Below, in pieces: positions 1 to 18,234 of a stretch of 64,000 nt of DNA. The notes beneath the pieces are model-generated. The model searched no databases. It was not told the origin of the DNA and worked only from the letters and a program-made list of their open reading frames with translations. Positions within the stretch are counted from its first letter, which is position 1; each line of letters begins with the position of its first letter. The position numbers and the translations under genes are program-made. The stretch comes from Bacillota bacterium (lineage in GTDB: Bacteria > Sysuimicrobiota > Sysuimicrobiia > Sysuimicrobiales > Segetimicrobiaceae). The stretch is from assembly GCA_021324295.1 (NCBI GenBank), contig JAJPJJ010000088.1, forward strand, positions 24,902 to 88,901, written 5' to 3'.

Positions 1-754
1 CCGGGCCGATGACAGCCGCCTTCGCGGACGCGTCCGCGTCGGCGTCTCCGGCGACGACCTGCGCCCCCTCGGCCTTCGACCCGGCCTGGGACGGGGCCGC
101 GGCCAGCACGGTTCCAGACTCGGACCCGCCCGACGGAGGCGGCGCGGACGGTCCCGGTGCGCCGGGGCCCGCGGGTGCCGGCGGCGCGAGGCCGGGCGGC
201 ATCGGCGGCAGCGACGGCGCAAGCGCTGGCGGCTGGGCCTTGGCGGCCGGCGGCGCGGCGGGCCCGCCCTCTGGCGCGCGCGCTGGAGGCGTCGGCGCGG
301 GCGGCTGCTGGGCCGCGGGCAGCTGCGGCGCCGCGGGTCGGTGCGCGGCCGCGCCGCCCGCGGGGGGCCGCGCGGGCGCGCGGTGCGCCGGCGGCTGGCG
401 CATCTGGAGCATGATCAGGAGCACGACGACCGCGCCGCCGACCAGCAGCGTGAGGCGCGTCCGGTGGATCCGCCTGCGGCTGGACTGCGTCGGGTCGCGC
501 TTCTGCACCAGCCCGAGGAGCCGCGACAGCAGGCCGGCGCGCTTCGCCTCGCGGCGCATGACCGCGAGCGTCGGGATCTGGGGGGCGTCTCCGCCGACCA
601 CGGCGTCCATCACGCGGCCGGCGAGGTCCGGGTTGCGCTCGGTCAGGCGCCCGAGCATGCCCGTGAACTCCTGGGTGCCCGGGCTCGGCACCTGCTCGGG
701 CTGGATGCCGAGCGCGCGGGCGATCTCCGGGACCAGGTCGCTCCACGCCGCCAT
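1..754 (-). CDS. Hypothetical membrane protein, partial: the N-terminus is in the window at about 754 and the C-terminus lies beyond the window start. It has a cytoplasmic N-domain, one TM helix, and a Pro/Ala-rich tail.
   Basis: Minus frame starting MAAWSDLVPEIARALG... has GC3-rich codons, a TM segment LTLLVGGAVVVLLIML, then a PA-rich low-complexity tail. This ORF is not in the ORF track because no stop occurs within the window. The plus ORF 9..1145 covering the same DNA is R/S-rich junk over most of its length. Confidence 0.4.
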   Translation of the reverse strand, partial: MAAWSDLVPEIARALGIQPEQVPSPGTQEFTGMLGRLTERNPDLAGRVMDAVVGGDAPQIPTLAVMRREAKRAGLLSRLLGLVQKRDPTQSSRRRIHRTRLTLLVGGAVVVLLIMLQMRQPPAHRAPARPPAGGAAAHRPAAPQLPAAQQPPAPTPPARAPEGGPAAPPAAKAQPPALAPSLPPMPPGLAPPAPAGPGAPGPSAPPPSGGSESGTVLAAAPSQAGSKAEGAQVVAGDADADASAKAAVIGP

Positions 755-800: not shown

Positions 801-1145
801 GTGGTCTGGCGTCTGCTGCTCGTGGCCGAGCTCGGGAACGCGTTCGACTGGGCGACGACGCTCATCGGCGTCGGCGGGCTGCACCTCGTGGAGCTGAACC
901 CGCACGCGGGCCTGCTCATCCGGGCCGTGGGCGCGCTGTGGGGGATCACGCTGTTCAAGGCGGCCGTGGGCTTCGAGCTCGCCGGCATGGCCGCCGCGGC
1001 GGCGTGGCTCGGCGCCCGCCGGGACGGCCGCGCCTGCGCGCTGTGCCTCGTCGCGCTCGCGGCCGCCGGGGCGCTGCTGTGGTGGGTCGCGGCGGCCAAC
1101 GCGCAGACGCTCATCCTGTACTTCCGCTCGACGGCGGCGCGGTGA
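801..1145 (+). CDS. Small hypothetical integral membrane protein, about 114 aa.
   Basis: GTG start at 801 preceded by GGGAGGGG. The hydrophobic C-terminal two thirds have multiple TM helices. Its stop overlaps the next start (ATGA at 1143-1147). It is the only sensible part of ORF 9..1145. Confidence 0.4.
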   Translation: MVWRLLLVAELGNAFDWATTLIGVGGLHLVELNPHAGLLIRAVGALWGITLFKAAVGFELAGMAAAAAWLGARRDGRACALCLVALAAAGALLWWVAAANAQTLILYFRSTAAR

Positions 1146-1780
1146 TGGCGGACGCTTTGTCTGTGCGGGACGGCCTCGCGGAGCTCGCCGCGGACGGCGC
1201 CTGGACGGCCGCGCAGCTCAGGGCGCGGCAGCGCGCGTGGGGGCTCCCGGATCTCGGCGGCTGCGTGCAGCGCCTGCCGGTCCGGCTGCGGCCCACGGCG
1301 TGGGCGCACCGCCGCGTCTTCAGCACGGTCGTGCAGCCGAGCGCAGCCGGGACGGCGCTGCTTCGGGCAGCCGGGGTCCGGCCGCAGGAGATCCGCCCGC
1401 AGGAGCTCGAGCACGCGCTCGGCCTCGCGGAGCTGCGCTTCCGATGCGGGGCGCGGCGCTGTGGGTATCATGCCCAGGACGCGCTCGGGCGCGAGCACCG
1501 GCGCGCGCGGGCCCTCGGCGGTGCGGGGTTCGGCGGGGCGGTCGCGGACGGGCTGATGCGGACGCCTCATGGGGTGATCCTGCTTGAGTACGACCACGGC
1601 CGGTACACGGGCGCGCAGGTGCGGGAGAAGCTGCGCGCCCAGCGCGCACTCGTCCGCTGGGACAGCGCCCGCGTTCTGGGGGCGATCTGGGGCGCGCCGA
1701 CCGAGCGGCGGGCGACGTGGCTGCGCGGGCTCGGCGTCGGCGAGGTCGTCGTGCTGCCGCCGGAGACGTGGCTCGGCTGA
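1145..1780 (+). CDS. Hypothetical protein, 211 aa, with no family I recognise.
   Basis: ATG at 1145 overlaps the upstream stop. It sits in the 341..1780 ORF frame. The segment VILLEYDHGRYTGAQVREKL is the only globular-looking motif. Its stop overlaps the next start (TGATG at 1778-1782). Confidence 0.4.
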   Translation: MADALSVRDGLAELAADGAWTAAQLRARQRAWGLPDLGGCVQRLPVRLRPTAWAHRRVFSTVVQPSAAGTALLRAAGVRPQEIRPQELEHALGLAELRFRCGARRCGYHAQDALGREHRRARALGGAGFGGAVADGLMRTPHGVILLEYDHGRYTGAQVREKLRAQRALVRWDSARVLGAIWGAPTERRATWLRGLGVGEVVVLPPETWLG

Positions 1781-2484
1781 TGAGCGGCCGGACGCGGCGC
1801 GGCGGGCGCGGTCGGTCAGCAGCCGGACGACGCCTGCGCAGCCTGGGCGCCGCGCTCGGAGGAGCGGCCCTCCTGGCCGCCGCGCTGGCGGCCGGCTGGT
1901 CGGCTGTCTCGACACGCACGGCCTCCGCGCGGTTCCCGTTCCCGTGCCTCGGGGTGGAGGGCTTGGCGCAGCACGTCCACCCGTGGCTGAGGATCGAGGT
2001 CGACGGACAGCCGGTGACGATCCCGGCGGCTGTGGGGATCGTGGATCCGGTCTACCGGAACGGCGCGGCGGTCGGAGGCGCGTGCTTCGAGCCGCTGCAC
2101 ACGCACGACGCCTCGGGGATCATCCATTTGGAGTCCCCGTCCCCGACCCAGCTGTACACGCTGGGCGACTTCTTCGCCGTGTGGCAGGCGACGTACGGGA
2201 CGGTCAGGATCGGCGGGCGGGCATTCCCCGTGGACTACACAGGCCGGGAGCTCCTGGGGCATCTGGAAAACGCTTCCAGCGCGATCATCCTGCTGGTCGA
2301 CGGCCGGCCCGACTCACGGGGGCCGCGCCTTCCCCTCAACGGGCTGGACTACTGCTCGGCGGCCGTGGGGAGGGAGCCGCCCTGCTGGCCGACGGCACCG
2401 CAGGATCCGTATCCGCCGTTCCTTGCGCTCCGGTACGGGACCGGGCATACGATCGTGCTTGTCTACGGGAGCACGCGTCAATAG
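1780..2484 (+). CDS. Hypothetical secreted protein, 234 aa, with a twin-Arg-like signal.
   Basis: ATG at 1780 is in the 1717..2484 frame. The N-terminus MSGRTRRGGRGRSAAGRRLRSLGAALGGAALLAAALAAGW resembles a signal or TAT leader. It is translationally coupled to the upstream gene. Confidence 0.5.
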   Translation: MSGRTRRGGRGRSAAGRRLRSLGAALGGAALLAAALAAGWSAVSTRTASARFPFPCLGVEGLAQHVHPWLRIEVDGQPVTIPAAVGIVDPVYRNGAAVGGACFEPLHTHDASGIIHLESPSPTQLYTLGDFFAVWQATYGTVRIGGRAFPVDYTGRELLGHLENASSAIILLVDGRPDSRGPRLPLNGLDYCSAAVGREPPCWPTAPQDPYPPFLALRYGTGHTIVLVYGSTRQ

Positions 2485-2518: not shown

Positions 2519-3433
2519 CTATCTCGCGGCCGCGAGCAGCGCCCTCGCGGCGTCGCGCGGACTGGCGGCGAGCGGCCACGTCGACGCGGCCCGCGCGACG
2601 GCGTCGGCCGCTCCGCCGGGCGTCGTCACCATGACCGGCGCCGCGGCGCCGTCCGCGAGGCGCCCGCGCGAGAGGACCAACACGGGAGCGACGGTTCCGG
2701 GAGGCGCGCCGAGCGCGCGGGCGACCGCCCGCCGCGCGCGCTCGAGCTGCCGCGCCGGGCTCGGGTGCTGCGCGGTGCCGTGCCGGCTCGTCTGCGTCCA
2801 CACCTCCGGCCCCGGCGCGACCTCGCCGCTCCACCGCTTCGTCTCGAGCGCGAAGGCGCCGGTGGGACCCAGCACGACGTGGTCGACCTCGCAGCGCCCG
2901 TCGTCGTCGGGCAGCCGCAGGTCGTGCAGGACGACGTAGCCGTCCGGCAGCGCGGCGAGCGCGCGCGCCGTCTCGCGCTCCCCCTCGATGCCGGCGGCGA
3001 TCCGCCGCGTGCCCGCGACGGCGCCCGACGCCCGCCATCCAGCGGCCAGCGCGAGCGCCGCGGCGGCCGCGCTCTCCGCCGCGCTCCGCCACGGCGCGGC
3101 CGCGGGGAGCGCGCTGCCGATTGCCACTCCCGAGCCGGCCGCCAGCGCGATCTCCATCCCCGCCGCGATGAGAGCGATGCGCTCGCCGGTCCACCGCCCG
3201 AGCGCGGCGGCGAGCCCCGAGGCGCCGGCGAGGAGCCACAGCGCGCCCGCGAGCCCGCAGGAGAACGCCCACAGGAGCGCGCGCTCGCTGTGGCGCGCCG
3301 CGGGGCCCAGGACGAGCGCCGCGGCGAACATGGCGGCGTCGACCCACCGCCACGGGTTCGTCTCGAGGATCGCGAGCTGTCTGCCCTCGACCTCGCCGGC
3401 CGTGCGCCCCGGGCCGCCGATGATCTGCGCCAC
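2519..3433 (-). CDS. Membrane-anchored NERD (nuclease-related domain) protein, 304 aa.
   Basis: The N-terminus has about 4 TM helices. The C-terminal segment GYVVLHDLRLPDDDGRCEVDHVVLGPTGAFALETKRW matches the NERD signature (D-H-x-hydrophobic...E-x-K). It starts 4 nt after the upstream AAA gene stop. Confidence 0.7.
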   Translation of the reverse strand: MAQIIGGPGRTAGEVEGRQLAILETNPWRWVDAAMFAAALVLGPAARHSERALLWAFSCGLAGALWLLAGASGLAAALGRWTGERIALIAAGMEIALAAGSGVAIGSALPAAAPWRSAAESAAAAALALAAGWRASGAVAGTRRIAAGIEGERETARALAALPDGYVVLHDLRLPDDDGRCEVDHVVLGPTGAFALETKRWSGEVAPGPEVWTQTSRHGTAQHPSPARQLERARRAVARALGAPPGTVAPVLVLSRGRLADGAAAPVMVTTPGGAADAVARAASTWPLAASPRDAARALLAAAR

Positions 3434-3437
3434 CCGC

Positions 3438-5699
3438 CTACGCCTCCTCGGGATCCAGCCGGGCGAGCGCCCGGCGGACGTGCTCGATCGTGACGCGCGG
3501 GGCGTCCTCGCTCAGCGCGATGACGCCGGCGATCCGGCACAGCTCCCGCAGGTCCCGGCCCGAGCGGCCGCCGGTGAGCGCGGCGACCTCCTCCGGCGTG
3601 GTCGTGGTCCTCGCGGGGAAGTGGCGCCGGAGGATCGCCGCCCGCTCTTCTGGCCCCGGCAGCGGGATCGCCACGTGATAGCTGAGCCGGCTGCGGACGG
3701 CCTGGTCGATCGCGTCCAAGTGGTTCGTGGCGCCCACCACGAACACGCCCGCAGCCGCGCCGCCCACGCCCTCGAGCTCCTGCAGGAACTGGTTGATCCG
3801 CTGGGTCGCGTCCTGCCCCGCGCCGGCGGCCGCCGCGCCGGGATCTGGGCGGCGCGAGGGCGCGACGCCGTCGAGCTCGTCGACGAACAGGATGCAGGGG
3901 GCCGCCTCGCGGGCCTGCCGGAACATGTCGCGGACGAGCTGCGTGCCCTCGCCGAGCCACATGGACGTGATGGCCGCGCCGGCGAACGCCAGGACCGGGC
4001 GGCCGGACTCGCCGGCCACGGCGCGGGCGATGAGCGTCTTGCCGGTCCCCGGCGGGCCGTAGAGGACCGCGCCGGCGGGCGGCGCCACCCCGAGCTCGCG
4101 GCCGACCTCGGGGTCGGTGATGAGGCGGACGAGCGTGCGCAGCTCGGCCATGATCCCGGGCGGCAGCACGAGGTCGCTGAAGCGCGCCTGCGCGATGCGG
4201 CTCGGTGCCGCCTGCCGGGTCGCGTGGCCGCCGGGCTCGGGGCGGATGCGGCGCAGGGCCAGCTCGAAGTGCGCGCGCGCGACCGCGGGCGCGCCCTCGG
4301 CCAGCGCCGCGAGGCCCGCCGCGCGGCACAGCTCGCGCAGGTCGCGCCCGCTCGCGCCCTGGGTCATGCGGGCGACCTCCTCCGGCGACGCCTGGGCGCG
4401 GGCCGGGAAGATGCGCCGCAGGATCTCGGCGCGCGCGGGCTCGTCGGGCAGCGGCACGGCCACGTGGTACCCGAGGCGGCTGCGGACCGCGGGGTCGATG
4501 TCGTCGAGCCGGTTGGACGCGCCCACCACGAACACGCCCGCGAGCGGGCCGGAGGCGCCCTCGAGCGCGTGCAGGAACTCGGCCATCCGCGCGCGGGCGT
4601 CCTGCGGCGCTCCCCCGCCCGCCGCGTCCGCGGCGCTGCGCGCCGGCGCCGCGCCGTCCAGCTCGTCGATGAACAGGACGCACGGCGCGGCCCGCCGGGC
4701 CTGCTCGAACACCGCGCGCACGAGCTGCGCGCCCTCGCCGACCCACATCGAGACGAGCTCGGCCCCGCTGAACGCCAGGGCGGCGCGCCCGGTCTCGCCG
4801 GCGATCGCCCGCGCGATCATGGTCTTGCCGGTCCCGGGCGGGCCGTAGAGGATGGCGCCCTGCGGGGGCTCGATCCCGAGCGCGGCGCCCGAGGCGGGAT
4901 CGCGCAGCAGGCGGATGAGCGCCTGGATCTCCAGGCGGGTGCGCTCGGGGAGCACGATGTCCGACAGGCGGAGCGTCGAGATCGCCGCGGACGTCGGCTC
5001 CCGCGTCACCCTCGGCGCGAGCGCGGAGACTTGGCGGCCCGCCGGCGCAGGCGCCGGCGCTGTGCGCATGGCGGCCGCGCCGCGCGCCGGACGCCTCCAC
5101 GAGGAGAGCGCGGCCGCCGAGGCGCCGAGGCACGCCAGCGCGACGGGCACGAAGACGACGAGGAGCACGTCCCCGGTCTGGTAGACGCGGTGCAGCGTGC
5201 CGGTCCTGACCGCGGCCACCCACAGGGCGGCCAGGAGCAGCGCGGCATGCCCGGCCTGCCGCGCCTCCCGGCGGCGCGGCCCCAGCCCGCTGAGCGCCCA
5301 CGACGCGGCGCACCAGCACGCGGCGGCCGCGTAGGGCGCGGCAACCGCAGCCGCGGCGCCGAGGGCCGCTCCGCTGGGGTCGACGGAGATCACCCGCAGG
5401 GCGTTGATCCACTCGACGCACAGCGCGAGCGCGCCGAACAGCACCCAGGCCGGCGCGCGCGAGCTCAGCATGGAGAGCAGTGCCCACGTGGACCCGAGCC
5501 ATGCCGCGAGCACCGAGCCGATCGCCCAGGCGCTTGCCGTGATCCACTCGGCGCGGTAGCCCTCCAGGCGCGCCACCGCGCCGCGGTACGTCAGCAGCAG
5601 GCAGACGACGGCCGAGACCGCGCACACCGCCGCGGTGCCGCGCACCGCCGGCCGGACGGCCGGCGCCTGCCGCATCCGTGTCATCGAGGCGATCCGCAT
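3438..5699 (-). CDS. Membrane-anchored tandem AAA+ ATPase, 753 aa, with two classic-clade AAA modules.
   Basis: The N-terminal roughly 250 aa are hydrophobic with multiple TM helices. Walker A GPPGTGKT occurs twice. Walker B is LFIDELD in the first module and LFVDELD in the second. SRH-like segments occur twice. The two modules are very similar to each other, indicating an internal duplication. Confidence 0.8.
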   Translation of the reverse strand: MRIASMTRMRQAPAVRPAVRGTAAVCAVSAVVCLLLTYRGAVARLEGYRAEWITASAWAIGSVLAAWLGSTWALLSMLSSRAPAWVLFGALALCVEWINALRVISVDPSGAALGAAAAVAAPYAAAACWCAASWALSGLGPRRREARQAGHAALLLAALWVAAVRTGTLHRVYQTGDVLLVVFVPVALACLGASAAALSSWRRPARGAAAMRTAPAPAPAGRQVSALAPRVTREPTSAAISTLRLSDIVLPERTRLEIQALIRLLRDPASGAALGIEPPQGAILYGPPGTGKTMIARAIAGETGRAALAFSGAELVSMWVGEGAQLVRAVFEQARRAAPCVLFIDELDGAAPARSAADAAGGGAPQDARARMAEFLHALEGASGPLAGVFVVGASNRLDDIDPAVRSRLGYHVAVPLPDEPARAEILRRIFPARAQASPEEVARMTQGASGRDLRELCRAAGLAALAEGAPAVARAHFELALRRIRPEPGGHATRQAAPSRIAQARFSDLVLPPGIMAELRTLVRLITDPEVGRELGVAPPAGAVLYGPPGTGKTLIARAVAGESGRPVLAFAGAAITSMWLGEGTQLVRDMFRQAREAAPCILFVDELDGVAPSRRPDPGAAAAGAGQDATQRINQFLQELEGVGGAAAGVFVVGATNHLDAIDQAVRSRLSYHVAIPLPGPEERAAILRRHFPARTTTTPEEVAALTGGRSGRDLRELCRIAGVIALSEDAPRVTIEHVRRALARLDPEEA

Positions 5700-5797: not shown

Positions 5798-6631
5798 ATG
5801 CGTGCGCGCGCGTGCGTGATGCTGCTTGCGGCCGCCGCCGTCCTGCGGGTGGGCGCGCCCGCGGGCGCGGCGTCGGCGGACGCCCTGCTTAGCGCGGGCG
5901 TGGAGGCCTACCTGCGCGGCGCTCCCGTCCACGCCCTCGCGGACTTCGCGCTGGCCGCGCGCGCGGCGCCCCGCAGCGCCCTCGCGGCGCTGTGGGCCGG
6001 CGTGGCCGCGGTCGCCGCGGGCCGCATGCCGGAGGCGGCCGCGTGGTTCCGCGAGGCGCTTGCGAGGCCCCACAGCGCGGCGGAGGCCGGCGTTGCCGCG
6101 GCGTGGCTCCGCCGCCTGTCCGTCCTCGCCGCGCCGCCGGCGCCCGCCAGGCGGACGTGGCTCGAGATCGCCGCGCTGGCCCGGGCGAGCAATCCGCGGC
6201 TCACCGCGGGGCAGGCCCGGTGGGTGGGGCAGGCGGTCGTGGCCGCCGCCCAACGCGCGGGGATCGACCCGTGGCTGCTGGCCTCGGTGGTGTACGTCGA
6301 GAGCCGGTTCAACCACCAGTCCGTGAGCTGGGCGGGCGCCGTGGGGCTCGGCCAGCTCATGCCGCAGACGGCCGCGGCTGCGGGCGTGGACGCCCGCGAT
6401 CCGTGGGGGAACCTCGTCGGGGCGGCCCGCGTGCTGCGGTGGGACTACGACGAGTTCCGCAGCTGGCCGCTCGCGCTCGCCGCGTACAACGCCGGCGCCG
6501 ACGCGGTGCGGCGGTACGGCGGGATCCCGCCGTACGCGGAGACGCGCTGGTACGTCGCTGCGGTGCTATACGTTTACCGGCAGAGTGTCCAAACCAGCAC
6601 GCCGCCATGGTATAGTGTGTTTGGGCAATGA
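5798..6631 (+). CDS. Lytic transglycosylase (SLT domain) with a signal peptide.
   Basis: Contains ESRFNHQSVSWAGAVGLGQLMP...AAYNAGADAVRRYGGIPPYAETRWYV. ATG at 5798 (MRARACVMLLAAAAVL) gives a signal peptide. The upstream part of ORF 5678.. is unlikely to be translated. Confidence 0.8.
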   Translation: MRARACVMLLAAAAVLRVGAPAGAASADALLSAGVEAYLRGAPVHALADFALAARAAPRSALAALWAGVAAVAAGRMPEAAAWFREALARPHSAAEAGVAAAWLRRLSVLAAPPAPARRTWLEIAALARASNPRLTAGQARWVGQAVVAAAQRAGIDPWLLASVVYVESRFNHQSVSWAGAVGLGQLMPQTAAAAGVDARDPWGNLVGAARVLRWDYDEFRSWPLALAAYNAGADAVRRYGGIPPYAETRWYVAAVLYVYRQSVQTSTPPWYSVFGQ

Positions 6632-6652
6632 GCCGCAACTGGAGGAGATCCT

Positions 6653-6892
6653 GTGGCCACTGCGCGTGAGGAACTGCATCGACTGGCTGACGTCCTTCCT
6701 GCTCAGGCAGTGGAAGAGTTGGCCGAGGTCGGTCGGGTGCTGGAGCGCCAAGCCGGTGCAGGCGAGATCGAGGAGGTCACGGATCCCGAGGAAGCCGAGA
6801 TCGTGCGGCAGGCGCTGGACGACACGGCGAGCGAACGCGATCTCGCGCCAGAGGAAGCCAAGGCCTACCTGGACCAGCGCCGCGGCGCGTAG
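6653..6892 (+). CDS. Putative type II antitoxin, 79 aa, acidic.
   Basis: Small acidic protein immediately upstream of a ParE/RelE-like toxin with a 3-nt gap. The family is not recognised by motif. Confidence 0.5.
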   Translation: MATAREELHRLADVLPAQAVEELAEVGRVLERQAGAGEIEEVTDPEEAEIVRQALDDTASERDLAPEEAKAYLDQRRGA

Positions 6893-6895
6893 CCG

Positions 6896-7222
6896 GTGGC
6901 AAGTGCAGTCCGGTTTGGGCGCGCTGCGCTCGACGATATTGCACGATACGAAGCTTGGCGCGGCCGCCAGAATCCCGGATGGCGCCCGATCGGCTCCGAT
7001 CTGATCGATGCGATTGTCCGGGTCGCCAGCCGGTATCAATCGTTTGAGTCGATCCCGGCGCCACTCCTTTCCGTTCACGGGCAGGCCGCACGGCTGAAGC
7101 GACTTCTCGTTCCTGTCCGCTCAAAGGTATTTCGCGTCTATGTGGGGCCGGGCCGCGAGCCCGGAGCCATCAGTGTCCGAAGGGTGCTCCACCCCTCGCG
7201 TCGGCCGATTGATCGCGGCTGA
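6896..7222 (+). CDS. parE: Type II toxin, ParE/RelE family, 108 aa.
   Basis: GTG start. The C-terminal segment KVFRVYVGPGREPGAISVRRVLHPSRR matches the ParE/RelE fold motif pattern (YRIxY...I.RI.H). Confidence 0.65.
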   Translation: MASAVRFGRAALDDIARYEAWRGRQNPGWRPIGSDLIDAIVRVASRYQSFESIPAPLLSVHGQAARLKRLLVPVRSKVFRVYVGPGREPGAISVRRVLHPSRRPIDRG

Positions 7223-7392: not shown

Positions 7393-8880
7393 TTATGGTC
7401 TTGATCGGCGACCCAAACGATCGCCGTTCGCCCCGCCAGGCGTCGGTCCGGAGTGTGCCCGGCTAGCCGCGCGCCCCGCGGCCTCGATGCGCTGCGTGAC
7501 GGCCCCGTTGATGGAGACCTGCACCGTCATCGGCACGGGCCCGGTGATCGTCTGGGTGACGCGCCGGCCGGGCGGGTGCGTCTCCTGCGAGTCCGTGACG
7601 GTGGCGCCGTCGGGCCCGACCGCGACGACGCGGACGAGCTGGCGCGGGGCGCCGCCCGGCACCGTGATCCGCAGCCGGATCGTCGCGCCGCCGCCCGCGT
7701 ACCGGATGGAGTGCGACAGCCACCGGCTCTTCCACGAGAGCCCGATCGCCCGGAGGTCCTCGCGCAGGGAGGCGACGATCCACGCGGCCCGGAGCCGGCG
7801 GATCGCCCGCCGCTCCAGCTCGCGCATGCGGTCGGGCGTCACCCCGTGCCGCCCGAGCTCACGCGCGGCCTCCTCGCCGCCGTCGAGCCCGTAGCGGCAG
7901 CGGATCACGGCCTGCTCGACCGGGGGCAGGACCCGGCGGACCAGCGCGCGCACGCTCGACGCGAGGTGTTCGCGCGCGGCCGTGCCGACGAACAGCTCCT
8001 CAGGCGACGGCGACTGCGGGTCGGCCTGCGTGTCGGCCACGGAGCGCTCGTCGTCCTCGTCCCCGCCGTGCCCGGCGGGCGCCTGCAGAGACACGGTGTC
8101 CACGGCGCCGCGCAGGGCGTCGTGCACCGCGCGCGGGCTCACGCCGATGGCCGCGGCCACCTCCTCCGGCGTCGGGCCGCGGCCCAGCTCCTGCGCGAGG
8201 CGCGCCTCGGCCCGCCGGATCCTGCGCAGGCGCTCCACGGCGTGCATCGGAATCCGGATGGTCCGTCCCTGCTCGGCGGTGGCGTGCTGCATGCTCTGCT
8301 GGATCCAGTACATCGCGTACGTGCTGAACCGGAACCCGCGCCGCCAGTCGAACTTCTCGACGGCCTTGATGAGCCCGGCGTTCGCCTCCTGGATGAGGTC
8401 GAGCGTCGGCAGGCCGCTCCACCTCGCGGCGCGGAACGCCGCGCTCGCGGCGAGCCGCAGGTTCGACTGGACCATGCGCTCGAACGCCGCCCGGTCGCCC
8501 GCCTCGATGCGCTTGGCGAGCTCGACTTCCTCGGCCGGCGCGAGCAGCGGGTACGCGCTGATCTCGCGCAGGTACAGCCGCAGCGAGTCGTCCGCGGGCG
8601 CATCGCCGTCCGGCGGATGCGCGGCCGGGAGCGCCGCGGCGTGCTCGGGGGAGAGCGTCTTCGCGCCGAGCTCGCCGAGGGCGTCCACGCTCGCCCGGTA
8701 GGCCTCCGGGTCCACCTCGTCGGGGCAGGGCACCGCGGCCAGCACGTCCGCGGTCGTGACCGCCCCGCCGGCCCGAGCGCGCCGGAGCAGCGAGGCGGCC
8801 CGGGACGCGGGGGCCGCGCGGCGCTGCGGCTGCGCGCCCGCGGGCGGCGCGGTCACGCGCTGTCCTCGCTCCATCCCCAT
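7393..8880 (-). CDS. Sigma-70 family RNA polymerase sigma factor (regions 1.2-4) with an extra C-terminal domain of about 130 aa.
   Basis: Region 2 is DLIQEANAGLIKAVEKFDWRRGFRFSTYAMYWIQQSM. Region 3 includes RIPMH. Region 4 is LPPVEQAVIRCRYGLDGG...RMRELERRAIRRLR. A non-sigma tail follows, ...RLRITVPGG...TQTITGPVPMTVQVSINGAVTQ. Confidence 0.75.
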   Translation of the reverse strand: MGMERGQRVTAPPAGAQPQRRAAPASRAASLLRRARAGGAVTTADVLAAVPCPDEVDPEAYRASVDALGELGAKTLSPEHAAALPAAHPPDGDAPADDSLRLYLREISAYPLLAPAEEVELAKRIEAGDRAAFERMVQSNLRLAASAAFRAARWSGLPTLDLIQEANAGLIKAVEKFDWRRGFRFSTYAMYWIQQSMQHATAEQGRTIRIPMHAVERLRRIRRAEARLAQELGRGPTPEEVAAAIGVSPRAVHDALRGAVDTVSLQAPAGHGGDEDDERSVADTQADPQSPSPEELFVGTAAREHLASSVRALVRRVLPPVEQAVIRCRYGLDGGEEAARELGRHGVTPDRMRELERRAIRRLRAAWIVASLREDLRAIGLSWKSRWLSHSIRYAGGGATIRLRITVPGGAPRQLVRVVAVGPDGATVTDSQETHPPGRRVTQTITGPVPMTVQVSINGAVTQRIEAAGRAASRAHSGPTPGGANGDRLGRRSRP

Positions 8881-9887
8881 GGGTCGCTCTCCGGGATATC
8901 GTCGTGCGTGCGCACCTTTGGCGGGCGCGGCGCCGGGCGCTGCTCGGCGGCCGCGGGCACCGGGACGATCTCGTCGGGCGAGGCCGGCGCGCCCGCGAGG
9001 ACGGCGTCGACCGCCTGGGCGGCGTCGCGGTGCACGGCGAGCGTGCGGTCCCGGCGCACCTCCACGGCGCAGCCGATGATCGGCGGCTCGAGCCGCCGCG
9101 GGCGGCCCCCGTCGGAGGACGGCTGTCCGACGAGCCCCGCGAGCTCGGGGTTGTGGACGATGTCGCCGAGCCCCTCGCCGTGCGCGGTGGCGAGCAGGCG
9201 CACGCCGCGGCGGGCGATGGTGCGGGCCGCGTCCGCCTCCCGGCGGGTCGTGATCTCGTCCACGACGACGACCTCCGGGAAGTGGTTGCGGACCGCGATC
9301 AGCATGATGTCGTACTGCGTGGCCGGCGCCGGCGCGCTGGGGCCCGGCACCTGCAGGCGCCTGGCCATCCCGATCGCCGGGTGCGGCACGACCCCGTCGC
9401 CGCCGATCTCGTTGTGGGAGTCGACCACCACGACCGCGGTGCCGAGCGCCTCGCTGAGGATCCGCGTGCAGTCGCGCAGCAGCGTCGTCTTCCCCGAGCC
9501 CGGCCGGCCGATCAGCAGGACCGACTCGCCGGTGTCGAGCAGGACGCGCCGCAGCGGCTCCGCCACGCCGGTGAGGTGGCGGCCGAGGCGGACCGTGACC
9601 CCCACCGGATCGCCGTACCGGTCGCGCACCAGGCTGAGCCGGTGCAGGGTCCCCTCCACGCCGGCGCGGTCGTCGCGCTCGAAGGCACCCACGCTCCCGA
9701 CGACGAACAGGATCTCCTCTTTGACGATCGGCATCGGGTCGAGCACCCGGAACCCGGCCGCGAACCGCGCCACCGGCGGCCGGCCGATGTCGAGCGCGAG
9801 CTCTACGAGGTCAGGCCCGAGAGACCCGACATACCCGGCGACCCTCGGGGGGAGGTGGCGGAGCAGGCGGGAGAGGTCGGGGTCCAT
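8853..9887 (-). CDS. SpoIIIAA / R3H-domain-like P-loop ATPase.
   Basis: Walker A LLIGRPGSGKTTLLRD. Walker B-like VVVVDE...IT at the end of the domain. It overlaps the sigma gene start by about 27 nt. Confidence 0.5.
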   Translation of the reverse strand: MDPDLSRLLRHLPPRVAGYVGSLGPDLVELALDIGRPPVARFAAGFRVLDPMPIVKEEILFVVGSVGAFERDDRAGVEGTLHRLSLVRDRYGDPVGVTVRLGRHLTGVAEPLRRVLLDTGESVLLIGRPGSGKTTLLRDCTRILSEALGTAVVVVDSHNEIGGDGVVPHPAIGMARRLQVPGPSAPAPATQYDIMLIAVRNHFPEVVVVDEITTRREADAARTIARRGVRLLATAHGEGLGDIVHNPELAGLVGQPSSDGGRPRRLEPPIIGCAVEVRRDRTLAVHRDAAQAVDAVLAGAPASPDEIVPVPAAAEQRPAPRPPKVRTHDDIPESDPWGWSEDSA

Positions 9888-10524: not shown

Positions 10525-11823
10525 CTACCTCCGCGCCGTCCGGCCGGCCGCGCGGTGGCGCGCGCGCCGCTGGTGGTCGCTGGCCACGGCGTGGTGCGCC
10601 TCGGCCAGCATGTCCTTCAGCCTCGCGAGGTCGCGGCGGGCGAGGTGCGGGTCGCGGTAGATCCGGGCGCGCCAGGCGAACGCGAGGAGGCCGGCCCAGA
10701 GCGTGTCGAGGGGCGACCACAGGAGCTTCGCCTGCTCGACCATGTACTCGGCCGCCTCGTGCTCGGCCCACTCGTTGATCCGCTCGAGGACGCCGGTGAA
10801 CTTCGCGACGTGGTTCGCGAGCAGGGCTTTGAGCTCGCTCAGGTTGCGCCGGACGTCGTACTTGTCGATCTGGGCGGCGAACAGGTTGAGCGCGGTCGCC
10901 GCGTGCGCCGACTCGTCGTCCTCGTCGGAGGCCGCCGGGGCCGGGGCCGGCGCGGCCCGCTGCCCGTCCGCGGCCGGCAGCGCCAGCGGGAGGCCGAGCT
11001 CCACGGCCTGCTTCTGCACCGCGGTGCGCGTGACGCCCTGGTCCGAGGCGATCGCGTTCACCACCGCGGTCGGCACGAAGCCGTGCGCCTTCGCCGCGTC
11101 GCGCAGGCGGCGCTCCGCCTCGGCCTTCTGCTCCGCGGTGCGGTCCTGGAAGACGTTCTTGACGGCGTCGTAGACGATCGCGGCGTGGACGCCGGACTGC
11201 GGGGCCGCCCACTCGGCCCACCCCATCGCGTCGCGGTCGCCCTCGTGCGCCTCGCGGTGCCGCTGCGCGAGGATGCGGAAGGTCGTCGCGCACTCCCCGG
11301 CGGTGAGGCGCTGCCCCTGCGGGGCGTTGAAGTAGACGAACAGCAGCTCGGGCGGCGGGTCCCCGTACATCGGATGGCGCTTGTAGGCGGGCGCGATGAG
11401 CTGGGCCGGCACGTGGGTCATGCCGGCCTCCTGCGCCGCCATCGCGCGCATCGCGCCGTCCACGACCACGTTGCTGGAGCCCCCGTCCGGCCGCGCCAGC
11501 ACCTTGATCGGATCGAGCCCGCAGGCGCGGAAGATCTCGTCCGGCTCCAGATCCGGCGAGGCCTCGCGCGCCGCGGCGATGAGCGACCGCAGCGCGTGGA
11601 TCGTGTCGCTGATCGCCTCCCGGCTGCGGCGCAGCCCCACGGCCAGCCTGAGGCCGCGGAACGTCAGCTCCCGCTCCTCGTCCTCCGGGATGTCCCGGAA
11701 GAGCTTGCGGAGCGACATGTCCATCCGCAGCATCTCGATCGCGAGCGCAAGCCCGTCCTTCACGACGACATACGGCTGGCCGATGCGCCGCTGCGCGAGC
11801 TTCGGGCTGACCTGTGCAGGCAT
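10525..11823 (-). CDS. ParB/Srx-like nuclease-domain protein, about 433 aa.
   Basis: The central segment IKVLARPDGGSSNVVVDGAMRAMAAQEAGMTHVPAQLI resembles the ParB N-terminal domain (hhDGhHRhhAA...G...hP). Start chosen at MPAQVSPKL at 11823. The upstream part of the ORF is R-rich. Confidence 0.5.
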   Translation of the reverse strand: MPAQVSPKLAQRRIGQPYVVVKDGLALAIEMLRMDMSLRKLFRDIPEDEERELTFRGLRLAVGLRRSREAISDTIHALRSLIAAAREASPDLEPDEIFRACGLDPIKVLARPDGGSSNVVVDGAMRAMAAQEAGMTHVPAQLIAPAYKRHPMYGDPPPELLFVYFNAPQGQRLTAGECATTFRILAQRHREAHEGDRDAMGWAEWAAPQSGVHAAIVYDAVKNVFQDRTAEQKAEAERRLRDAAKAHGFVPTAVVNAIASDQGVTRTAVQKQAVELGLPLALPAADGQRAAPAPAPAASDEDDESAHAATALNLFAAQIDKYDVRRNLSELKALLANHVAKFTGVLERINEWAEHEAAEYMVEQAKLLWSPLDTLWAGLLAFAWRARIYRDPHLARRDLARLKDMLAEAHHAVASDHQRRARHRAAGRTARR

Positions 11824-12183: not shown

Positions 12184-12951
12184 TCAGGAGATGCCGGGGT
12201 CGCCGGTCGCGACTCTGGCGATGGCCGCCGGGTCCATTAGCAGGATCCGGTGCCCGCTAGCGCTGGCGATCCCGGCCTGGCGCCAGGCCGCGAAGACCCG
12301 GCTCACCGTGGCCTGGTTGAGACAGGCGATCTCCGCGAGATCCTGCTGCGAGGCGTCCAGCACCAGCGGACGGTCCGGGGGGCCTGCCCGCATGGCGTGG
12401 CGGGCGATCTCCATCACCGCCATCGCCAGGCGCTGGTCGGAGCGCCTGGTGAGCAGCTCCGCCATCCGGTCGTACGCCGCGAGCGCCGCCCGGGCGGCGA
12501 CCCGCAGGCCGGCCATGGCGACCGCGGGGTGCCTGCCGGCGAGGTGCGCCCACGTCAGGGCGTCCCACCACAGCGACTCGCACCCGGTGAGCGCCTCGGC
12601 GGAGTACGGGTATTCCGTGCCGTCCAGCACGGCGGCGCCGCCGACCACCACGCCCGCGGACGCGACCCTGAGGGCGATCCGCGTGCCGTCGGGCTCGGTC
12701 CGCACCAGCTTGACCAGGCCGGACGTCACGACGTAGAGGCGCGACGCCGGGGCCCCCTGCCGGAACAGCGCCTGCCCGCGGCCGGCGCGGGAGAGCCGGG
12801 CCGCGGCCGAGACCTCGGCGATGGCGGCCGGAGGCAGCCCGTCAAACAGCGGGAGCGATGCGGCACCCGCTGGACAGGCGCCGCGGGGCGCGCCTGCGCC
12901 GCTGTGAATGTGAATTGGAGGCCGTGCTGATACACCGTCTTGGGTCTGCAT
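12184..12951 (-). CDS. Crp/Fnr family transcriptional regulator.
   Basis: cNMP-binding-like N-domain. C-terminal HTH QQDLAEIACLNQATVSRVFAAWRQAGI. Start at MQTQDG at 12951. The upstream part of the ORF is junk. Confidence 0.7.
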   Translation of the reverse strand: MQTQDGVSARPPIHIHSGAGAPRGACPAGAASLPLFDGLPPAAIAEVSAAARLSRAGRGQALFRQGAPASRLYVVTSGLVKLVRTEPDGTRIALRVASAGVVVGGAAVLDGTEYPYSAEALTGCESLWWDALTWAHLAGRHPAVAMAGLRVAARAALAAYDRMAELLTRRSDQRLAMAVMEIARHAMRAGPPDRPLVLDASQQDLAEIACLNQATVSRVFAAWRQAGIASASGHRILLMDPAAIARVATGDPGIS

Positions 12952-13665
12952 GGCGGCGATCCACCGCAGAGCAGGCCGCGCCGGCCGGCGCCTCCCGCGG
13001 CGCGGCCCGGATGACGTTCCCTCCTTTCGCGTCTGCGTCGCGGCGGGGGCGGAAGCGAGGCCGGACGCGCCCGCGGCGATCGGCCGCCGCACATCGGCTG
13101 GCGCCGGCGGAGCTGCGCGTCCGGGATCAGACCGCCGTCGGAGAGTAGGGATCCGCGCAGAAGCGCATGGGACTGCCGCGGGGAGATCACAAGGCAGGTG
13201 CTTCTTCGGTGCTTCACCGCTGCGCCCCCCGTTCGTCCAGCCGTGCAGCCCGCCGCAGCAAAAAGAAGAGGGCCGCCCCGGCCGTCGAGCAGGGGCAACC
13301 CCTTTCGGCAGCGCAGCCGACCGCGCGACGTCCACGCCCCCCGCGCGGTCCTGTCGCTTTGCGGCCCCGGATTGCTCCGGGTGTGCTCTTATCGAGAGGT
13401 CTCGAGCGTCACTCTGTCAGTTGTGCCAATCACGTTACACGCCCCGCCGGCGGCTGTCAATGCAAGTTGCGTATAAGGTGCGCGGAAGTACCGTTTAGCA
13501 CCGATAGAAGTTGGCCGCACCGGGCACCATATGCGGACGGCGTGACCTGCTTCCACAGGGGAATCCCCGGGCTTCAGTCCGGCGAGGACGTCAACGCGGG
13601 TTGCCCCGGCCCGCTGCGGCCGCTCGCATACACTGACGCCACACCATGGTGCGCGGAGGTCGCCG

Positions 13666-14765: not shown

Positions 14766-15278
14766 GTGGTCGACGTCACGATCGGGATCGACCCGGGAGT
14801 GGGCGGCGCCGTGGCCGCGCTGGACGGGCGCGGCAGGCTCGTCGCGCTCGACGACACCCCGACCATCATGGTGCGCTCCGGCCGGAGGCAGCGGCGCGCG
14901 TACGACGTCGCGGCCATGCGCGCCGCGGTGTCGCGCTGCGCCGCGGGCGGGACCGCGGCGCACGCCGTCATCGAGCACCAGCGGGCCATGCCCAAGCAGG
15001 GTGTCGCGAGCATGTTCAGCACGGGATACGGATACGGGCTGTGGGTGGGGCTGCTCGCCGGGCTCGGCATTCCGCACACGGTGGTCGAGCCGCAGCGGTG
15101 GCAGGCGGCGATGCTCCTGGGCCGCGGCGATCCGAAAGCCCGGGCGCTCCTCGCCGCGTCTCGGCTGTTCCCCTCGATCGTGATCCCGAGGACCCGCCAC
15201 GGCCGCGCCGACGCGCTGCTGCTGGCGGAGTACGGGCGCCGGCTGCTGTCAGGCATCGCGCGGGAGGCGGCGTCGTGA
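14766..15278 (+). CDS. RuvC-like Holliday junction resolvase (phage-type).
   Basis: GTG start at 14766. The segment VDVTIGIDPGVGGAVAALDGRGRLVALDD matches the RuvC N-terminal catalytic motif (IGIDPG). It lies 9 nt after the upstream stop. Confidence 0.55.
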   Translation: MVDVTIGIDPGVGGAVAALDGRGRLVALDDTPTIMVRSGRRQRRAYDVAAMRAAVSRCAAGGTAAHAVIEHQRAMPKQGVASMFSTGYGYGLWVGLLAGLGIPHTVVEPQRWQAAMLLGRGDPKARALLAASRLFPSIVIPRTRHGRADALLLAEYGRRLLSGIAREAAS

Positions 15279-15946
15279 CGCGCGCCGCGGTCGCAGCCGC
15301 GATCGGCGCGGGGCTGCTGGCGCTGTGGGGCGCGCCCTCATCGGCGCAGGCGCCGGCCGGCACGACGAACGCGGTGCTGAGCTACGTCGACGCGGCGGGC
15401 GGCCACGTGAGCGTGGTCCGGCACTGGACGGGTCCGGGCACCGGGCAGGACACGCAGGTGACGCCGTTCACGCCCTACTTCTGGGACGGCTGCCTGCCGT
15501 TCCAGCAGGGCGCGCTCATGCTGCTGCTCACGAGCCCGGCGGGCTACCCAGCGCCGCAGCTCACGAGCTCCGCGGCGTACACGGCCCAGTACCTCGCCAG
15601 GCTGGGGCAGGCGGCGGCGTCGGCGCTCAATCAGGCGGCGGCGTCCCTGCCGCCGTCCCAGGCGCAGGCCGCGGGCAACCTGGAGGCGCTCGCGGCGCGG
15701 CTCGCCACGCCGGGCGACCCGGCCTATGAGATCCTGAAGGCCGCTCCGCTCGTGAACTCCCTCAGCGCGTACGAGGACTACGGGTACGCGGTGTTCATGT
15801 TCGTGCGGTGGAAGTGGATCTACGTCCCGTTCCCCGTGCCGTCGCCGTGCGCGCAGGTCGACATCGTGTCGGTTCCGGAGGGGTACGGGATCCCGTTCGT
15901 CGCGCGGGCGCGGCCGTCCTGGACCGAGGCCCGCTGGCGCCCGTAG
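15275..15946 (+). CDS. Secreted hypothetical protein.
   Basis: GTG at 15275 overlaps the upstream stop (GTGA). Signal peptide VTRAAVAAAIGAGLLALWGAPSSAQA. Confidence 0.5.
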   Translation: MTRAAVAAAIGAGLLALWGAPSSAQAPAGTTNAVLSYVDAAGGHVSVVRHWTGPGTGQDTQVTPFTPYFWDGCLPFQQGALMLLLTSPAGYPAPQLTSSAAYTAQYLARLGQAAASALNQAAASLPPSQAQAAGNLEALAARLATPGDPAYEILKAAPLVNSLSAYEDYGYAVFMFVRWKWIYVPFPVPSPCAQVDIVSVPEGYGIPFVARARPSWTEARWRP

Positions 15947-16485
15947 TGCCGGCGGCGCGCGGGTGGCCCGCGCTGGCGGCCGCCGCGGCCGTGATCGCGG
16001 CGGGCGTGCCCGCGGCGGCCGCCGGCCCCCAGGCGCGGCAGGCCGAGGTGCGGGCCGCGGGAGGCGTGGTCGTGCGGTACCCGGCGCTGTGGCGGGCCGC
16101 GGTTGCCGAGGGCGGCCGCGTCGTCGTGATCGCGGGGCCGCGGGGAGGCAAGACGCGCGCGGCCGCCGCGATCATGGTCGTGCGCGGGGGCGCCGACAGC
16201 GCGGCGCTGCTTGCGAGCGCCGCGCGCGGCCTGGGCGCGCGGGCGCCCCTCAAGCTCCTCGGGGAGCGGCGCCTCGGGCCGGGCCGCGCGGCGCGCTACT
16301 ACGTGCGGGGCGAGGGCGCCGCGTCGGAGTACGTGATGGTCGGCGCCGCGGCGGGCCGCGGCTGGGCGGTGATCATGGTGGCCGTCGATCCGGTGTCGGA
16401 CCCGGCGCTGCGCACGCGGGCCGCGGTGTTTCAGGCCATCCTCATGGACGTGCGGATGCCGGCTGGAGGCGGCGGGGAGGGGTGA
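15946..16485 (+). CDS. Hypothetical exported protein.
   Basis: GTG at 15946 overlaps the upstream TAG. The N-terminus is hydrophobic. It is translationally coupled to the next gene (ATGA at 16483-16487). Confidence 0.45.
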   Translation: MPAARGWPALAAAAAVIAAGVPAAAAGPQARQAEVRAAGGVVVRYPALWRAAVAEGGRVVVIAGPRGGKTRAAAAIMVVRGGADSAALLASAARGLGARAPLKLLGERRLGPGRAARYYVRGEGAASEYVMVGAAAGRGWAVIMVAVDPVSDPALRTRAAVFQAILMDVRMPAGGGGEG

Positions 16486-16724
16486 TGCGGGTGGACGTGC
16501 AGGCCAATGACGCGTGGCGGCGCGGCGTCGAGCGGCGGAGGCGGCTGCTCGGTGTGCGGGACGTGGCGGAGTACCTGGGGCTCAGCAAGGACACGGTGCA
16601 CGAGATGTGCCGGAAGCACCGGATCCCGCACCTCAAGATCGGCGGCCGGATCCGGTTCGAGCCGGAGGAGTTCTACCGGTGGGTGGAGACGCACCGACGC
16701 GGGTATCAGCCGCATCGCGTGTGA
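16485..16724 (+). CDS. xis: Excisionase-family HTH DNA-binding protein.
   Basis: The segment VAEYLGLSKDTVHEMCRKHRIPHLKIGGRIRFEPEEF is the excisionase/MerR-like helix-turn-helix 17 signature. Confidence 0.65.
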   Translation: MRVDVQANDAWRRGVERRRRLLGVRDVAEYLGLSKDTVHEMCRKHRIPHLKIGGRIRFEPEEFYRWVETHRRGYQPHRV

Positions 16725-16789
16725 CGCTGGGATCCGGCGTTGCCGATCTCGTTCGGTACACGCGAGACAGGTGTAAGGGGGAGCACCGT

Positions 16790-17056
16790 ATGACTCAAGT
16801 CGATGAGCTGCGCCATGCCCAGATGGCGGTGGCGGTGTTAGATCCGAATCAGCTCGTTAGCGACGGACTCATGACCGTGCCCGAGGTGGCAGCGTTTCTT
16901 CGGCTCAGCCGAAGCACTGTCTACGCCTTGATGGAGAAGGGCGCGCTGCCGTATGTCCGGATCGGCGCCGCCCGCCGTGTCCCGCGGCGCGCCGTGATTG
17001 ACCTGGCTGCTGCCAACCTTCGGGGGGAGTTCCACGATCGGACCGCAAACTACTGA
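16790..17056 (+). CDS. Second excisionase-family HTH DNA-binding protein.
   Basis: The segment MTVPEVAAFLRLSRSTVYALMEKGALPYVRIGAARRVPRRAV carries the same signature. Confidence 0.6.
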   Translation: MTQVDELRHAQMAVAVLDPNQLVSDGLMTVPEVAAFLRLSRSTVYALMEKGALPYVRIGAARRVPRRAVIDLAAANLRGEFHDRTANY

Positions 17057-17091
17057 GTGCGTCGCGATGACCAGTGTGGAGGTGAACCCCC

Positions 17092-18234
17092 GTGGGCGGC
17101 AGGCGCGGCCGCGGCGAAGGGACGGTGTTCAGACGCGGAGATGGGCTGTGGGTAGGCGCCTTGACCTTTGGGTACGATTCTCGCGGGAAACGCCGCAGAC
17201 AAGTGGTGTACGGGGCCACCAAGGCGGAGGTGCTGGAGCGTCTTGCGCGGCTGCGGGTGAGCGCCCTGGACGGCACAATGGTCCATCCACAGCGCCTCAC
17301 GGTGGCGGGGTATTTGGCGCGGTGGCTGGAAGACACGGTCCGCACCGGGATGCGGGAGAGCACGTATCAGATGTACGAGATAACCGTTCGATGCCACATC
17401 GCGCCGTCCATTGGCGGGGTTCAGCTGCCAAGGGTCGGCGCCATGCACGTTCACGCCATGCTCGCGGAGATGGAACGGAATGGGGCGTCGCCGCGTCAGC
17501 GTCAGATTGCCTTCAAGGTGTTCCGCCGGGCGATGCGCCAGGCGGTGCGCTGGAAGATGATCCCGCACGACCCGTGCGCCGCGGTCACCGCCCCGCGGGT
17601 TCCGCATAGGGAGATGCAGGTGCTGACGCCTGAGCAGGCCAGGCGCTTCCTCGCGGCTGCATGCGAGGACAGATTGTATGGGCTCTATGCCGTCCTGTTG
17701 GGCTGCGGGCTGCGCCTCGGGGAAGCGCTCGGCTTGACATGGCCGGACGTGGATCTGGAGCGAGGCACGATCACGGTGCGGCGGCAGCTGTGTGACGTGA
17801 ACGGCAGGCTCTGGCTGCAGGAGCCGAAGACGGAGCGCTCTCGAAGGACCATAGACCTCCCGGCATTTGTTGCCGATGCACTGCGGGACCACCAACAGCG
17901 AATGAAGACCGAGGGTCACCTCCTCAACGACCGGTTGCTCGTGTTTGTTGACACCGACGGCAAACCTATTCGCCGGACCAATCTCCGGAAACGCTCCTTC
18001 CTCCCGCTGCTTCGCCGGGCGGGGCTGCCGCGCATCAGGCTGCACGACCTGCGTCACACCGCTGCGACGCTGCATCTCTTGCAGGGGACGCACCCGTCTG
18101 TCGTCCAGCACATGCTCGGTCATGCCAGGGTAAGCATCACGCTGGACGTGTACTCGCACGTCCTCCCGACGCTCGGCAAGGAGGCGGCCCAGCGGATCGA
18201 CGCGCTGCTGCGGGCGCCGCGGCCGGGCCGGTGA
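17092..18234 (+). CDS. int: Tyrosine site-specific integrase (phage integrase family).
   Basis: GTG start. C-terminal catalytic region includes RLHDLRHTAATLHL...HMLGHARVSITLDVYSHV with the R..HxxR..Y pattern. Confidence 0.85.
   Translation: MGGRRGRGEGTVFRRGDGLWVGALTFGYDSRGKRRRQVVYGATKAEVLERLARLRVSALDGTMVHPQRLTVAGYLARWLEDTVRTGMRESTYQMYEITVRCHIAPSIGGVQLPRVGAMHVHAMLAEMERNGASPRQRQIAFKVFRRAMRQAVRWKMIPHDPCAAVTAPRVPHREMQVLTPEQARRFLAAACEDRLYGLYAVLLGCGLRLGEALGLTWPDVDLERGTITVRRQLCDVNGRLWLQEPKTERSRRTIDLPAFVADALRDHQQRMKTEGHLLNDRLLVFVDTDGKPIRRTNLRKRSFLPLLRRAGLPRIRLHDLRHTAATLHLLQGTHPSVVQHMLGHARVSITLDVYSHVLPTLGKEAAQRIDALLRAPRPGR

Follow-up and report, generated by a model that had tools for sequence, protein, structure and literature searches.

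Motors of the classic AAA clade that carry aromatic pore loops thread proteins, and those that are anchored in a membrane, such as FtsH, Msp1, and Bcs1, act on membrane or membrane-proximal substrates. The pairing of an AAA+ motor with a PD-(D/E)xK nuclease, following McrBC-type logic, is common in defence, and the hotspots between the tra genes of SXT-type elements carry defence systems. In this study, we examine two adjacent genes in a window of 64,000 nucleotides (nt; the whole stretch of DNA that was analysed, numbered from its first letter). One encodes an ATPase with two AAA modules behind a transmembrane (TM) anchor, here called TM-AAA2, and the other a membrane protein with a NERD domain. 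The pair is an undescribed accessory motor-nuclease module in the type IV secretion system (T4SS) region of a conjugative element. The reading that we favour, at a probability of roughly 0.4, is that the two proteins are a conjugation-linked membrane unfoldase and nuclease that assist donor-side DNA processing at the T4SS, a preference that draws on the threading activity of classic-clade AAA motors and on the behaviour of their membrane-anchored members.

The best solved-structure matches to TM-AAA2 are p97/VCP, VAT, and Cdc48 (E about 1e-83 to 1e-76), with which it shares tandem classic AAA modules with lids, Walker A and B motifs, sensor 1, Arg fingers, and an aromatic pore loop. The N-domain of these proteins is missing, as neither TM-AAA2 nor its close homologues match PF02359 or PF02933, and six TM helices are found instead. 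The NCBIfam CDC48 model reaches 291 bits where 803 are required, the sequence of the second region of homology (SRH) is DPAVRSRL instead of the usual ALLRPGRFD, and the two modules, D1 and D2, are 62% identical to each other. FtsH, Msp1/ATAD1, and Bcs1 likewise consist of a classic-clade AAA motor tethered by N-terminal TM helices, but none of them has the two AAA modules and the six TM helices of TM-AAA2. With the FtsH_fam model, the score is about 325-326 bits against a cut-off of 600, and the M41 protease domain is absent (no PF01434 match). The T4SS ATPases VirB4, VirB11, and VirD4 resemble TM-AAA2 in their location in the same cluster, in their association with the membrane, and in the expectation of a hexameric P-loop motor at the cytoplasmic face; TM-AAA2, however, belongs to another ATPase clade and has no T4SS-DNA_transf or TrwB_AAD_bind Pfam match. 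A role as a VirD4 substitute was rejected, since related elements possess a separate VirD4 gene. With VirB4 also present here, TM-AAA2 is an extra motor.

The NERD domain is counted in the PD-(D/E)xK superfamily (PMC3424549). Proteins of PF08378, which include pXO1 plasmid proteins, PglW of BREX, MAD6 of MADS, and SmdA, share with the second protein of the pair a NERD domain bearing the PD-(D/E)xK signature. This protein differs from them in that it has no kinase or helicase fusion, about four TM helices, a family-specific N-terminal motif, and a location in a T4SS cluster beside AAA+ and relaxase-like genes. Its likeness to PglW and MAD6 is confined to the NERD part (20.6 bits against a cut-off of 990 for PglW, 44.5 against 460 for MAD6), with no kinase domain. 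A combination of TM segment and NERD domain is already known from SmdA of Staphylococcus aureus, which has a role in cell division and is without several conserved NERD residues (PMC9040797) that are kept in the protein described here.

McrBC-type systems and IetAS follow the same two-gene logic of motor plus effector. Unlike the McrBC-type systems, the pair has AAA modules of the classic clade, rather than of the McrB GTPase clade, and both of its proteins are membrane-anchored. Models of IetA match TM-AAA2, but the IteA score of 200 bits is below the cut-off of 510, and the neighbouring gene encodes a NERD protein, not an IetS protease. None of the literature that was searched describes an AAA gene paired with a NERD gene, or places a Cdc48-like ATPase in a T4SS cluster.

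Results

TM-AAA2 occupies window positions 3438-5699 of the minus strand (753 amino acids; aa), and the NERD gene lies downstream of it at 2519-3433 on the same strand (304 aa). The TAG stop codon of TM-AAA2 ends at 3438 and the GTG start codon of the NERD gene, with GGAGG upstream, is at 3433, leaving the 4-nt gap that an initial annotation of this DNA, made from the sequence alone, had already reported between two minus-strand genes. Third-position GC content is 0.96-0.97 in both open reading frames (ORFs), matching that of the neighbouring genes in a region of 73-80% GC, and the start codons are supported by the conservation of both N-termini among homologues. Both genes are real. The source locus, L001, is a 179-kb metagenome contig, ERZ27279673 k141_109089, from coal-fire-affected soil at Centralia, PA, of which the window is a reversed segment that starts just downstream of the pair.

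The initial annotation described about six TM helices followed by two classic AAA modules in TM-AAA2, and Pfam, hydropathy, the AlphaFold model, and the alignment of homologues all agree with this architecture. The helices fall within approximately residues 12-201 by hydropathy, to which the AlphaFold model conforms, although with low confidence for the anchor (predicted local distance difference test score, pLDDT, 62). A linker then leads to D1 (about residues 246-497) and D2 (about 505-753). The Pfam AAA family PF00004 matches in two stretches (E=7.4e-71), together with two AAA_lid_3 domains. Both modules retain, across 12 homologues of 45-82% identity, the Walker A motif GPPGTGKT, the Walker B motif DE(L/I)D (DELD in TM-AAA2), the sensor-1 Asn, and the unusual SRH; the D1 pore loop S-M/K-W-V-G-E (MWVGE in the window copy) is conserved and the D2 loop is variable. 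Arg fingers are intact in both D1 and D2. TM-AAA2 has the two modules, each with Walker A and B, sensor 1, SRH, and lid, of a type II classic AAA protein, and the aromatic pore loop of D1 points to a protein substrate. The modules are not near-identical, as had been stated at first: their 62% identity, measured over 246 aa in a comparison of residues 240-497 with 502-753, corresponds to about 73% at the DNA level. Even so, this value is unusually high for a type II AAA+ protein and suggests that a single-module ancestor was duplicated in tandem comparatively recently. By its sequence, TM-AAA2 is predicted to be a Cdc48/p97-type double-ring AAA+ protein with intact catalytic motifs, in which the six-TM anchor replaces the N-domain.

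About four TM helices precede the NERD domain in the 304-aa protein, again as initially annotated. The PF08378 match (E=2.7e-23, 83 bits against a gathering score of 22.1) spans residues 148-255, and the orthologue in the related element L098 matches the same family at 3.2e-18. Seven orthologues all have E152, D184 (in EVDH), and E197-x-K199, which provide the conserved acidic residues and the (D/E)xK element of the PD-(D/E)xK signature, and a cytosolic N-terminal motif, MAxxIGxxGxTA, is conserved as well. Pfam and the alignment of orthologues indicate a polytopic membrane protein with an intact predicted PD-(D/E)xK active site. The AlphaFold model is of low confidence (pLDDT 53); a Foldseek search returned nothing from the PDB at E<0.1, the top matches being PD-(D/E)xK nucleases of no significance, and a profile search of the PDB using the NERD alignment gave zero matches. 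With hhalign, no relation was detected between the NERD protein and the relaxase-like family described below, or between the TM regions of the NERD protein and TM-AAA2.

The state of the NERD active site bears on one alternative, in which TM-AAA2 serves the assembly or quality control of the T4SS by extracting or inserting membrane subunits such as the pilin, much as Msp1, Bcs1, or FtsH-like AAA proteins do, and the NERD protein is a membrane adaptor or scaffold instead of a nuclease. Other membrane-anchored classic AAA proteins do act on membrane proteins, and one related element retains the TM anchor alone. The part played in cell division by SmdA, also a TM and NERD protein, is in keeping with a structural role (PMC9040797). 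The catalytic E, D, and E-x-K are nevertheless invariant in all seven orthologues, whereas SmdA is without several NERD residues, and the coupling of the NERD gene to the relaxase-like gene would be left unexplained. We consider this alternative quite improbable.

It is the type IV secretion/conjugation region of an integrative conjugative element that surrounds the pair, and not a defence island. On L001 the order is a ParB-like 432-aa gene, a helix-turn-helix (HTH) gene, a SpoIIIAA-like ATPase, a sigma-70 factor, two small ORFs, a TPR-SLT transglycosylase, and TM-AAA2, followed by the NERD gene, genes of 234, 211, and 114 aa, a divergent 482-aa TrbI-like gene, three small genes, a 906-aa VirB4 gene, and further genes. 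The transglycosylase (5798-6631, plus strand), with TPR and SLT domains, is VirB1-like and divergent from TM-AAA2. The TrbI/VirB10-like gene is cut by the window start, so that its 5' part only is present (1-754, minus strand), and the remaining T4SS operon lies beyond window position 1, at L001 positions 14946-22262, where VirB4 (17481-20201) matches P-loop_TraG at 3e-14 and also TraC_F_IV. Past VirB4, related elements carry a TrbL-like (VirB6-like) gene and a VirD4 of 1081-1143 aa (T4SS-DNA_transf, TrwB_AAD_bind, TraG-D_C), the latter seen in L092, L093, L096, and L134. On the other side of the pair are two HTH_17 excisionase-like genes (16482-16724 and 16796-17056, plus strand), a tyrosine integrase (17092-18234, plus strand; Phage_integrase 4e-25), and, at 18392, a 5'-truncated luciferase-like gene that likely marks the element end. 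Together these identify an integrated conjugative element with one end near 18.3 kb; its other end lies outside the window. The transglycosylase and integrase noted by the initial annotation are both genuine, but they belong to the conjugative element, and the defence-island context that they had been taken to indicate is not borne out, as the neighbours form a T4SS/conjugation cluster and none of them matches any PADLOC model.

Between the pair and the T4SS operon lies a 211-aa gene (1145-1780, plus strand) whose product resembles the Replic_Relax family (PF13814), which corresponds to MOBC relaxases (PMC5357655) and, like NERD, is placed within the PD-(D/E)xK superfamily (PMC3424549). Replic_Relax is the top Pfam match in five of six orthologues of this gene (201-229 aa), covering about the same profile region each time, with E-values of 1.8e-4 to 0.05 that are in every case below the gathering score. 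The orthologues align with a 'replication-relaxation family protein' of the Oceanithermus plasmid pOCEPR01, itself above the Pfam threshold, and with a protein of Thermus p61; eight residues (H90, E96, R98, H118, D135, E148, D150, and K162) are invariant in this alignment.

Nine related elements were readable after dereplication (L005/L090 and L006/L092/L099 each counting as one element). The cluster with both TM-AAA2 and NERD is found in five further distinct elements (L005/L090, L088, L006/L092/L099, L089, and L098), and the NERD gene is kept in the cluster of seven soil-metagenome elements, within two genes of TM-AAA2 in all six that have the AAA gene on the contig. Three arrangements occur. 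The NERD gene directly follows TM-AAA2 in four loci (L001, L005, L088, and L090, with gaps of 4, 2, 2, and 2 nt); it is on the opposite strand in L006 and L089, where it overlaps the relaxase-like gene by 13 nt; and in L098 it is downstream of the SLT gene and divergent from TM-AAA2. In L093, the NERD gene is present and the TM-AAA2 region is off the contig. From these gaps and overlaps, the NERD gene appears to be translationally coupled to either TM-AAA2 or the MOBC-like relaxase gene. Its persistence within one or two genes of TM-AAA2 through three different arrangements argues for a functional link, and upholds the initial annotation of a linked pair.

The remaining elements show that the module is accessory. 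All that is left in L097 is a 254-aa piece of the TM anchor (35% identity to TM-AAA2 residues 143-260), with no AAA modules and no NERD gene, and in L134 the slot is occupied by unrelated genes; both keep the rest of the cluster. L096 is a remnant with VirB4 and VirD4 only. The L097 remnant ORF (6065-6829, plus strand) stops where D1 would start, and the relaxase-like gene begins 24 nt later. A clean deletion would account for this ORF, as would a separate role for the anchor.

Sequence identity to the window copy is 63-69% for the AAA modules, 67-80% for SLT, 58-65% for the SpoIIIAA-like protein, 52-66% for VirB4, and 50-63% for the relaxase-like protein, with NERD at 36-44% and the TM anchor at 37-41%. 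The similar values of the AAA modules, VirB4, SLT, and SpoIIIAA-like proteins fit long co-inheritance of TM-AAA2 with the backbone. The family is very rare and known from metagenomes. In a HMMER scan of 1.84 billion cluster representatives, only two sequences, P0005 and the fragment P0189, covered the TM-anchor part; a metagenome scan with the family-specific SRH motif yielded three close loci; and IMG/VR contained no match. A scan of genome contigs with the full TM-AAA2 alignment, which used generic Walker A patterns, gave only Cdc48 and FtsH relatives of at most 40% identity among the matches listed.

The closest named relatives of VirB4 are encoded by plasmids of Thermaceae and Deinococcus (approximately 25-32% identity), which also carry relaxase-like, SLT, and SpoIIIAA-like genes. 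One of them, pOCEPR01 of Oceanithermus profundus, typed by MOB-suite as MPF_T/MOBC and conjugative, encodes a 530-aa 'ATP-binding protein' (NC_014753 69574-71166; in locus L094, NC_014753.1, 9575-11167, minus strand) with 4 or 5 TM helices, a linker, and one AAA module. This protein, which is unique in PLSDB, shares the family motifs LVLPDETLR..DP and IDPAFRSRLG..P and looks like a single-module form of the TM-AAA2 family, a form that fits with the high D1/D2 identity of TM-AAA2. The two proteins are alike in TM anchor, linker, classic AAA module with family motifs, and residence on conjugative DNA, in this case a plasmid with the nearest named T4SS. The Oceanithermus protein differs in that it has one AAA module, no NERD partner, and a location about 10 kb from the T4SS genes of the plasmid.

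The surroundings of the Oceanithermus gene, beside ssb, a weak ArdC-N-like gene, and parAB, are of the leading-region type and raise a further alternative, that the module has a recipient-side function in establishment or anti-defence and is expressed early after transfer. The pOCEPR01 arrangement is a single case, however, and in the element family of the window the pair sits between the SLT and relaxase-like genes rather than beside ssb. A role of this kind is very improbable.

The other genes of the region were also inspected. A 114-aa small conserved gene (801-1145, plus strand; weak DUF5658 match) lies upstream of the relaxase-like gene, and a 234-aa gene (1780-2484, plus strand), with no functional assignment, lies between the latter and the NERD gene; it is variable cargo that is absent from the other elements. 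The SpoIIIAA-like P-loop ATPase gene (8853-9887, minus strand) is kept in all related elements and in the Thermaceae T4SS plasmids. Its end is overlapped by 28 nt by the gene for a 495-aa sigma-70 family factor with regions 1.2, 2, and 3 (7393-8880, minus strand), and a sigma factor is found at the same position in L097. The 432-aa protein (10525-11823, minus strand) has no Pfam match, with a ParB/Srx-like motif recognized by eye (DGAMRAMAAQEAG); in pOCEPR01, an annotated ParB/Srx N-terminal-domain gene adjoins the TM-AAA gene.

Two small plus-strand ORFs between the transglycosylase and the sigma factor (6653-6892 and 6896-7222; 79 and 108 aa, 3 nt apart) had been proposed as a ParE/RelE toxin-antitoxin pair. 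They have no Pfam, NCBIfam, or PADLOC support and resemble such a pair in appearance only, in a patch of about 67% GC; the gene caller of the source lists only the first of them. Another patch of lower GC, about 65%, coincides with the integrase/excisionase stretch (16482-18931). The luciferase-like monooxygenase gene that follows the integrase matches profile positions 101-225 of 314 only and is probably the disrupted integration target. Also inside the element, at 13304-13397 on the minus strand, is a c-di-GMP-I riboswitch (Rfam RF01051, 56.9 bits, E=1.8e-8), approximately 350 nt upstream of a Crp/FNR-type regulator gene (12184-12951; cNMP_binding and HTH_Crp_2), which suggests second-messenger control of the element. 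A 95-nt tRNA-Thr(GGT) called by ARAGORN at 12303-12397 (minus strand) is over-long, falls within the Crp-like ORF, and is probably false. A search for the origin of transfer by inverted repeats, and a promoter and terminator scan, were uninformative in DNA of 78% GC.

Discussion

The locus is best explained if the pair is an accessory module that has long resided in the conjugation region of a rare family of integrative conjugative elements from soil metagenomes. As to mechanism, TM-AAA2 would assemble into a hexamer on the cytoplasmic side of the membrane, next to the T4SS, and there may unfold or remodel a protein close to the membrane, which could be a T4SS subunit, the relaxase-like protein, or its own partner, the NERD protein. 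DNA at this site would be cut or held by the membrane-tethered NERD nuclease. Together, the two could aid the processing of DNA in the donor and its delivery to the T4SS, and the module would improve transfer without being indispensable for it. A narrower proposal, in which TM-AAA2 is a dedicated, T4SS-docked unfoldase that threads the PD-(D/E)xK-type (MOBC-like) relaxase and/or the NERD protein into the channel, while the NERD protein supplies the relaxosome with a second nuclease for DNA processing, seems improbable to us in that specific form.

Several observations weigh against a role in DNA processing. L097 and L134, which are without the module, retain the SLT, relaxase-like, TrbI-like, and VirB4 genes, and the module consequently lies outside the T4SS core. 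The pair is also missing from the cluster in the distantly related Thermaceae T4SS plasmids. The type IV coupling protein of the element in the window is expected at a position beyond the sequence covered, VirD4 being known from related elements. The NERD protein and the TM anchor evolve faster than the T4SS core. Finally, the slot between TM-AAA2 and the relaxase-like gene holds variable cargo in addition to the module, namely a HipA_2 gene with a weak DUF3037 gene, the 234-aa gene, and genes of 118 and 128 aa, which makes it partly hotspot-like. The HipA_2 kinase gene and the 301-aa gene with the weak DUF3037 match are inserted between the NERD and relaxase-like genes in L005 (6278-7922) and L090 (8381-10058); they are toxin-antitoxin- or defence-like cargo, and so the slot takes up foreign genes.

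Several of these observations would fit the main rival reading, that the module is hotspot cargo between two conserved blocks and acts as an element-borne barrier against incoming DNA, either in anti-phage defence or in entry exclusion. The NERD protein might then degrade DNA as it crosses the inner membrane, for which its membrane position is well suited, and TM-AAA2 might sense the invader or activate, reset, or remove the nuclease. The common defence design of motor plus PD-(D/E)xK nuclease, the carriage of defence systems between tra genes in SXT-type elements, the occurrence of NERD domains in PglW and MAD6, to both of which the NERD protein has weak matches, the absence of the module from two otherwise conserved clusters, the HipA-like and other variable genes of the slot, and the rapid divergence of NERD and anchor are all compatible with such a barrier.

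Other evidence argues against it. PADLOC returned generic IetA/TRIP13 AAA matches and a weak match to the N-terminus of PglW for the pair, and neither PADLOC nor NCBIfam gave a defence model at threshold for either protein; the neighbouring genes had no PADLOC match and no match to an NCBIfam defence model. This confirms the initial statement that no named defence system corresponds to the pair. The module is kept in seven of the nine related elements at backbone-like divergence, rather than being swapped for unrelated systems as is typical of hotspots, and in two of them the NERD gene overlaps the relaxase-like gene. The AAA modules group with the classic protein threaders rather than with a DNA-translocating clade, and the family is absent from IMG/VR. 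On this evidence a barrier is somewhat unlikely. The initial proposal of an undescribed defence-type module accordingly survives in its first part, whereas a defence role is no longer favoured, given the conjugation-cluster neighbours.

The interest of a conjugation-linked unfoldase and nuclease lies in a gap in the current view of conjugative transport: the relaxase must be unfolded before it is transported, and the unfoldase responsible has not been identified (PMC6362355). A membrane-anchored Cdc48-type unfoldase in a T4SS cluster, tied genetically to a membrane nuclease and to a relaxase-like gene of restriction-enzyme-like type, is a concrete candidate for relaxase unfolding. The rarity of the family and its metagenome-only occurrence limit the immediate reach of this proposal, and the pOCEPR01 relative in the cultured Oceanithermus profundus DSM 14977 is a possible experimental entry point. 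If the barrier is true instead, the backbone of a conjugative element would be carrying, in this pair, a new kind of nuclease defence based at the membrane. Under either of these two readings, a membrane-anchored NERD protein would acquire a defined function connected with DNA.

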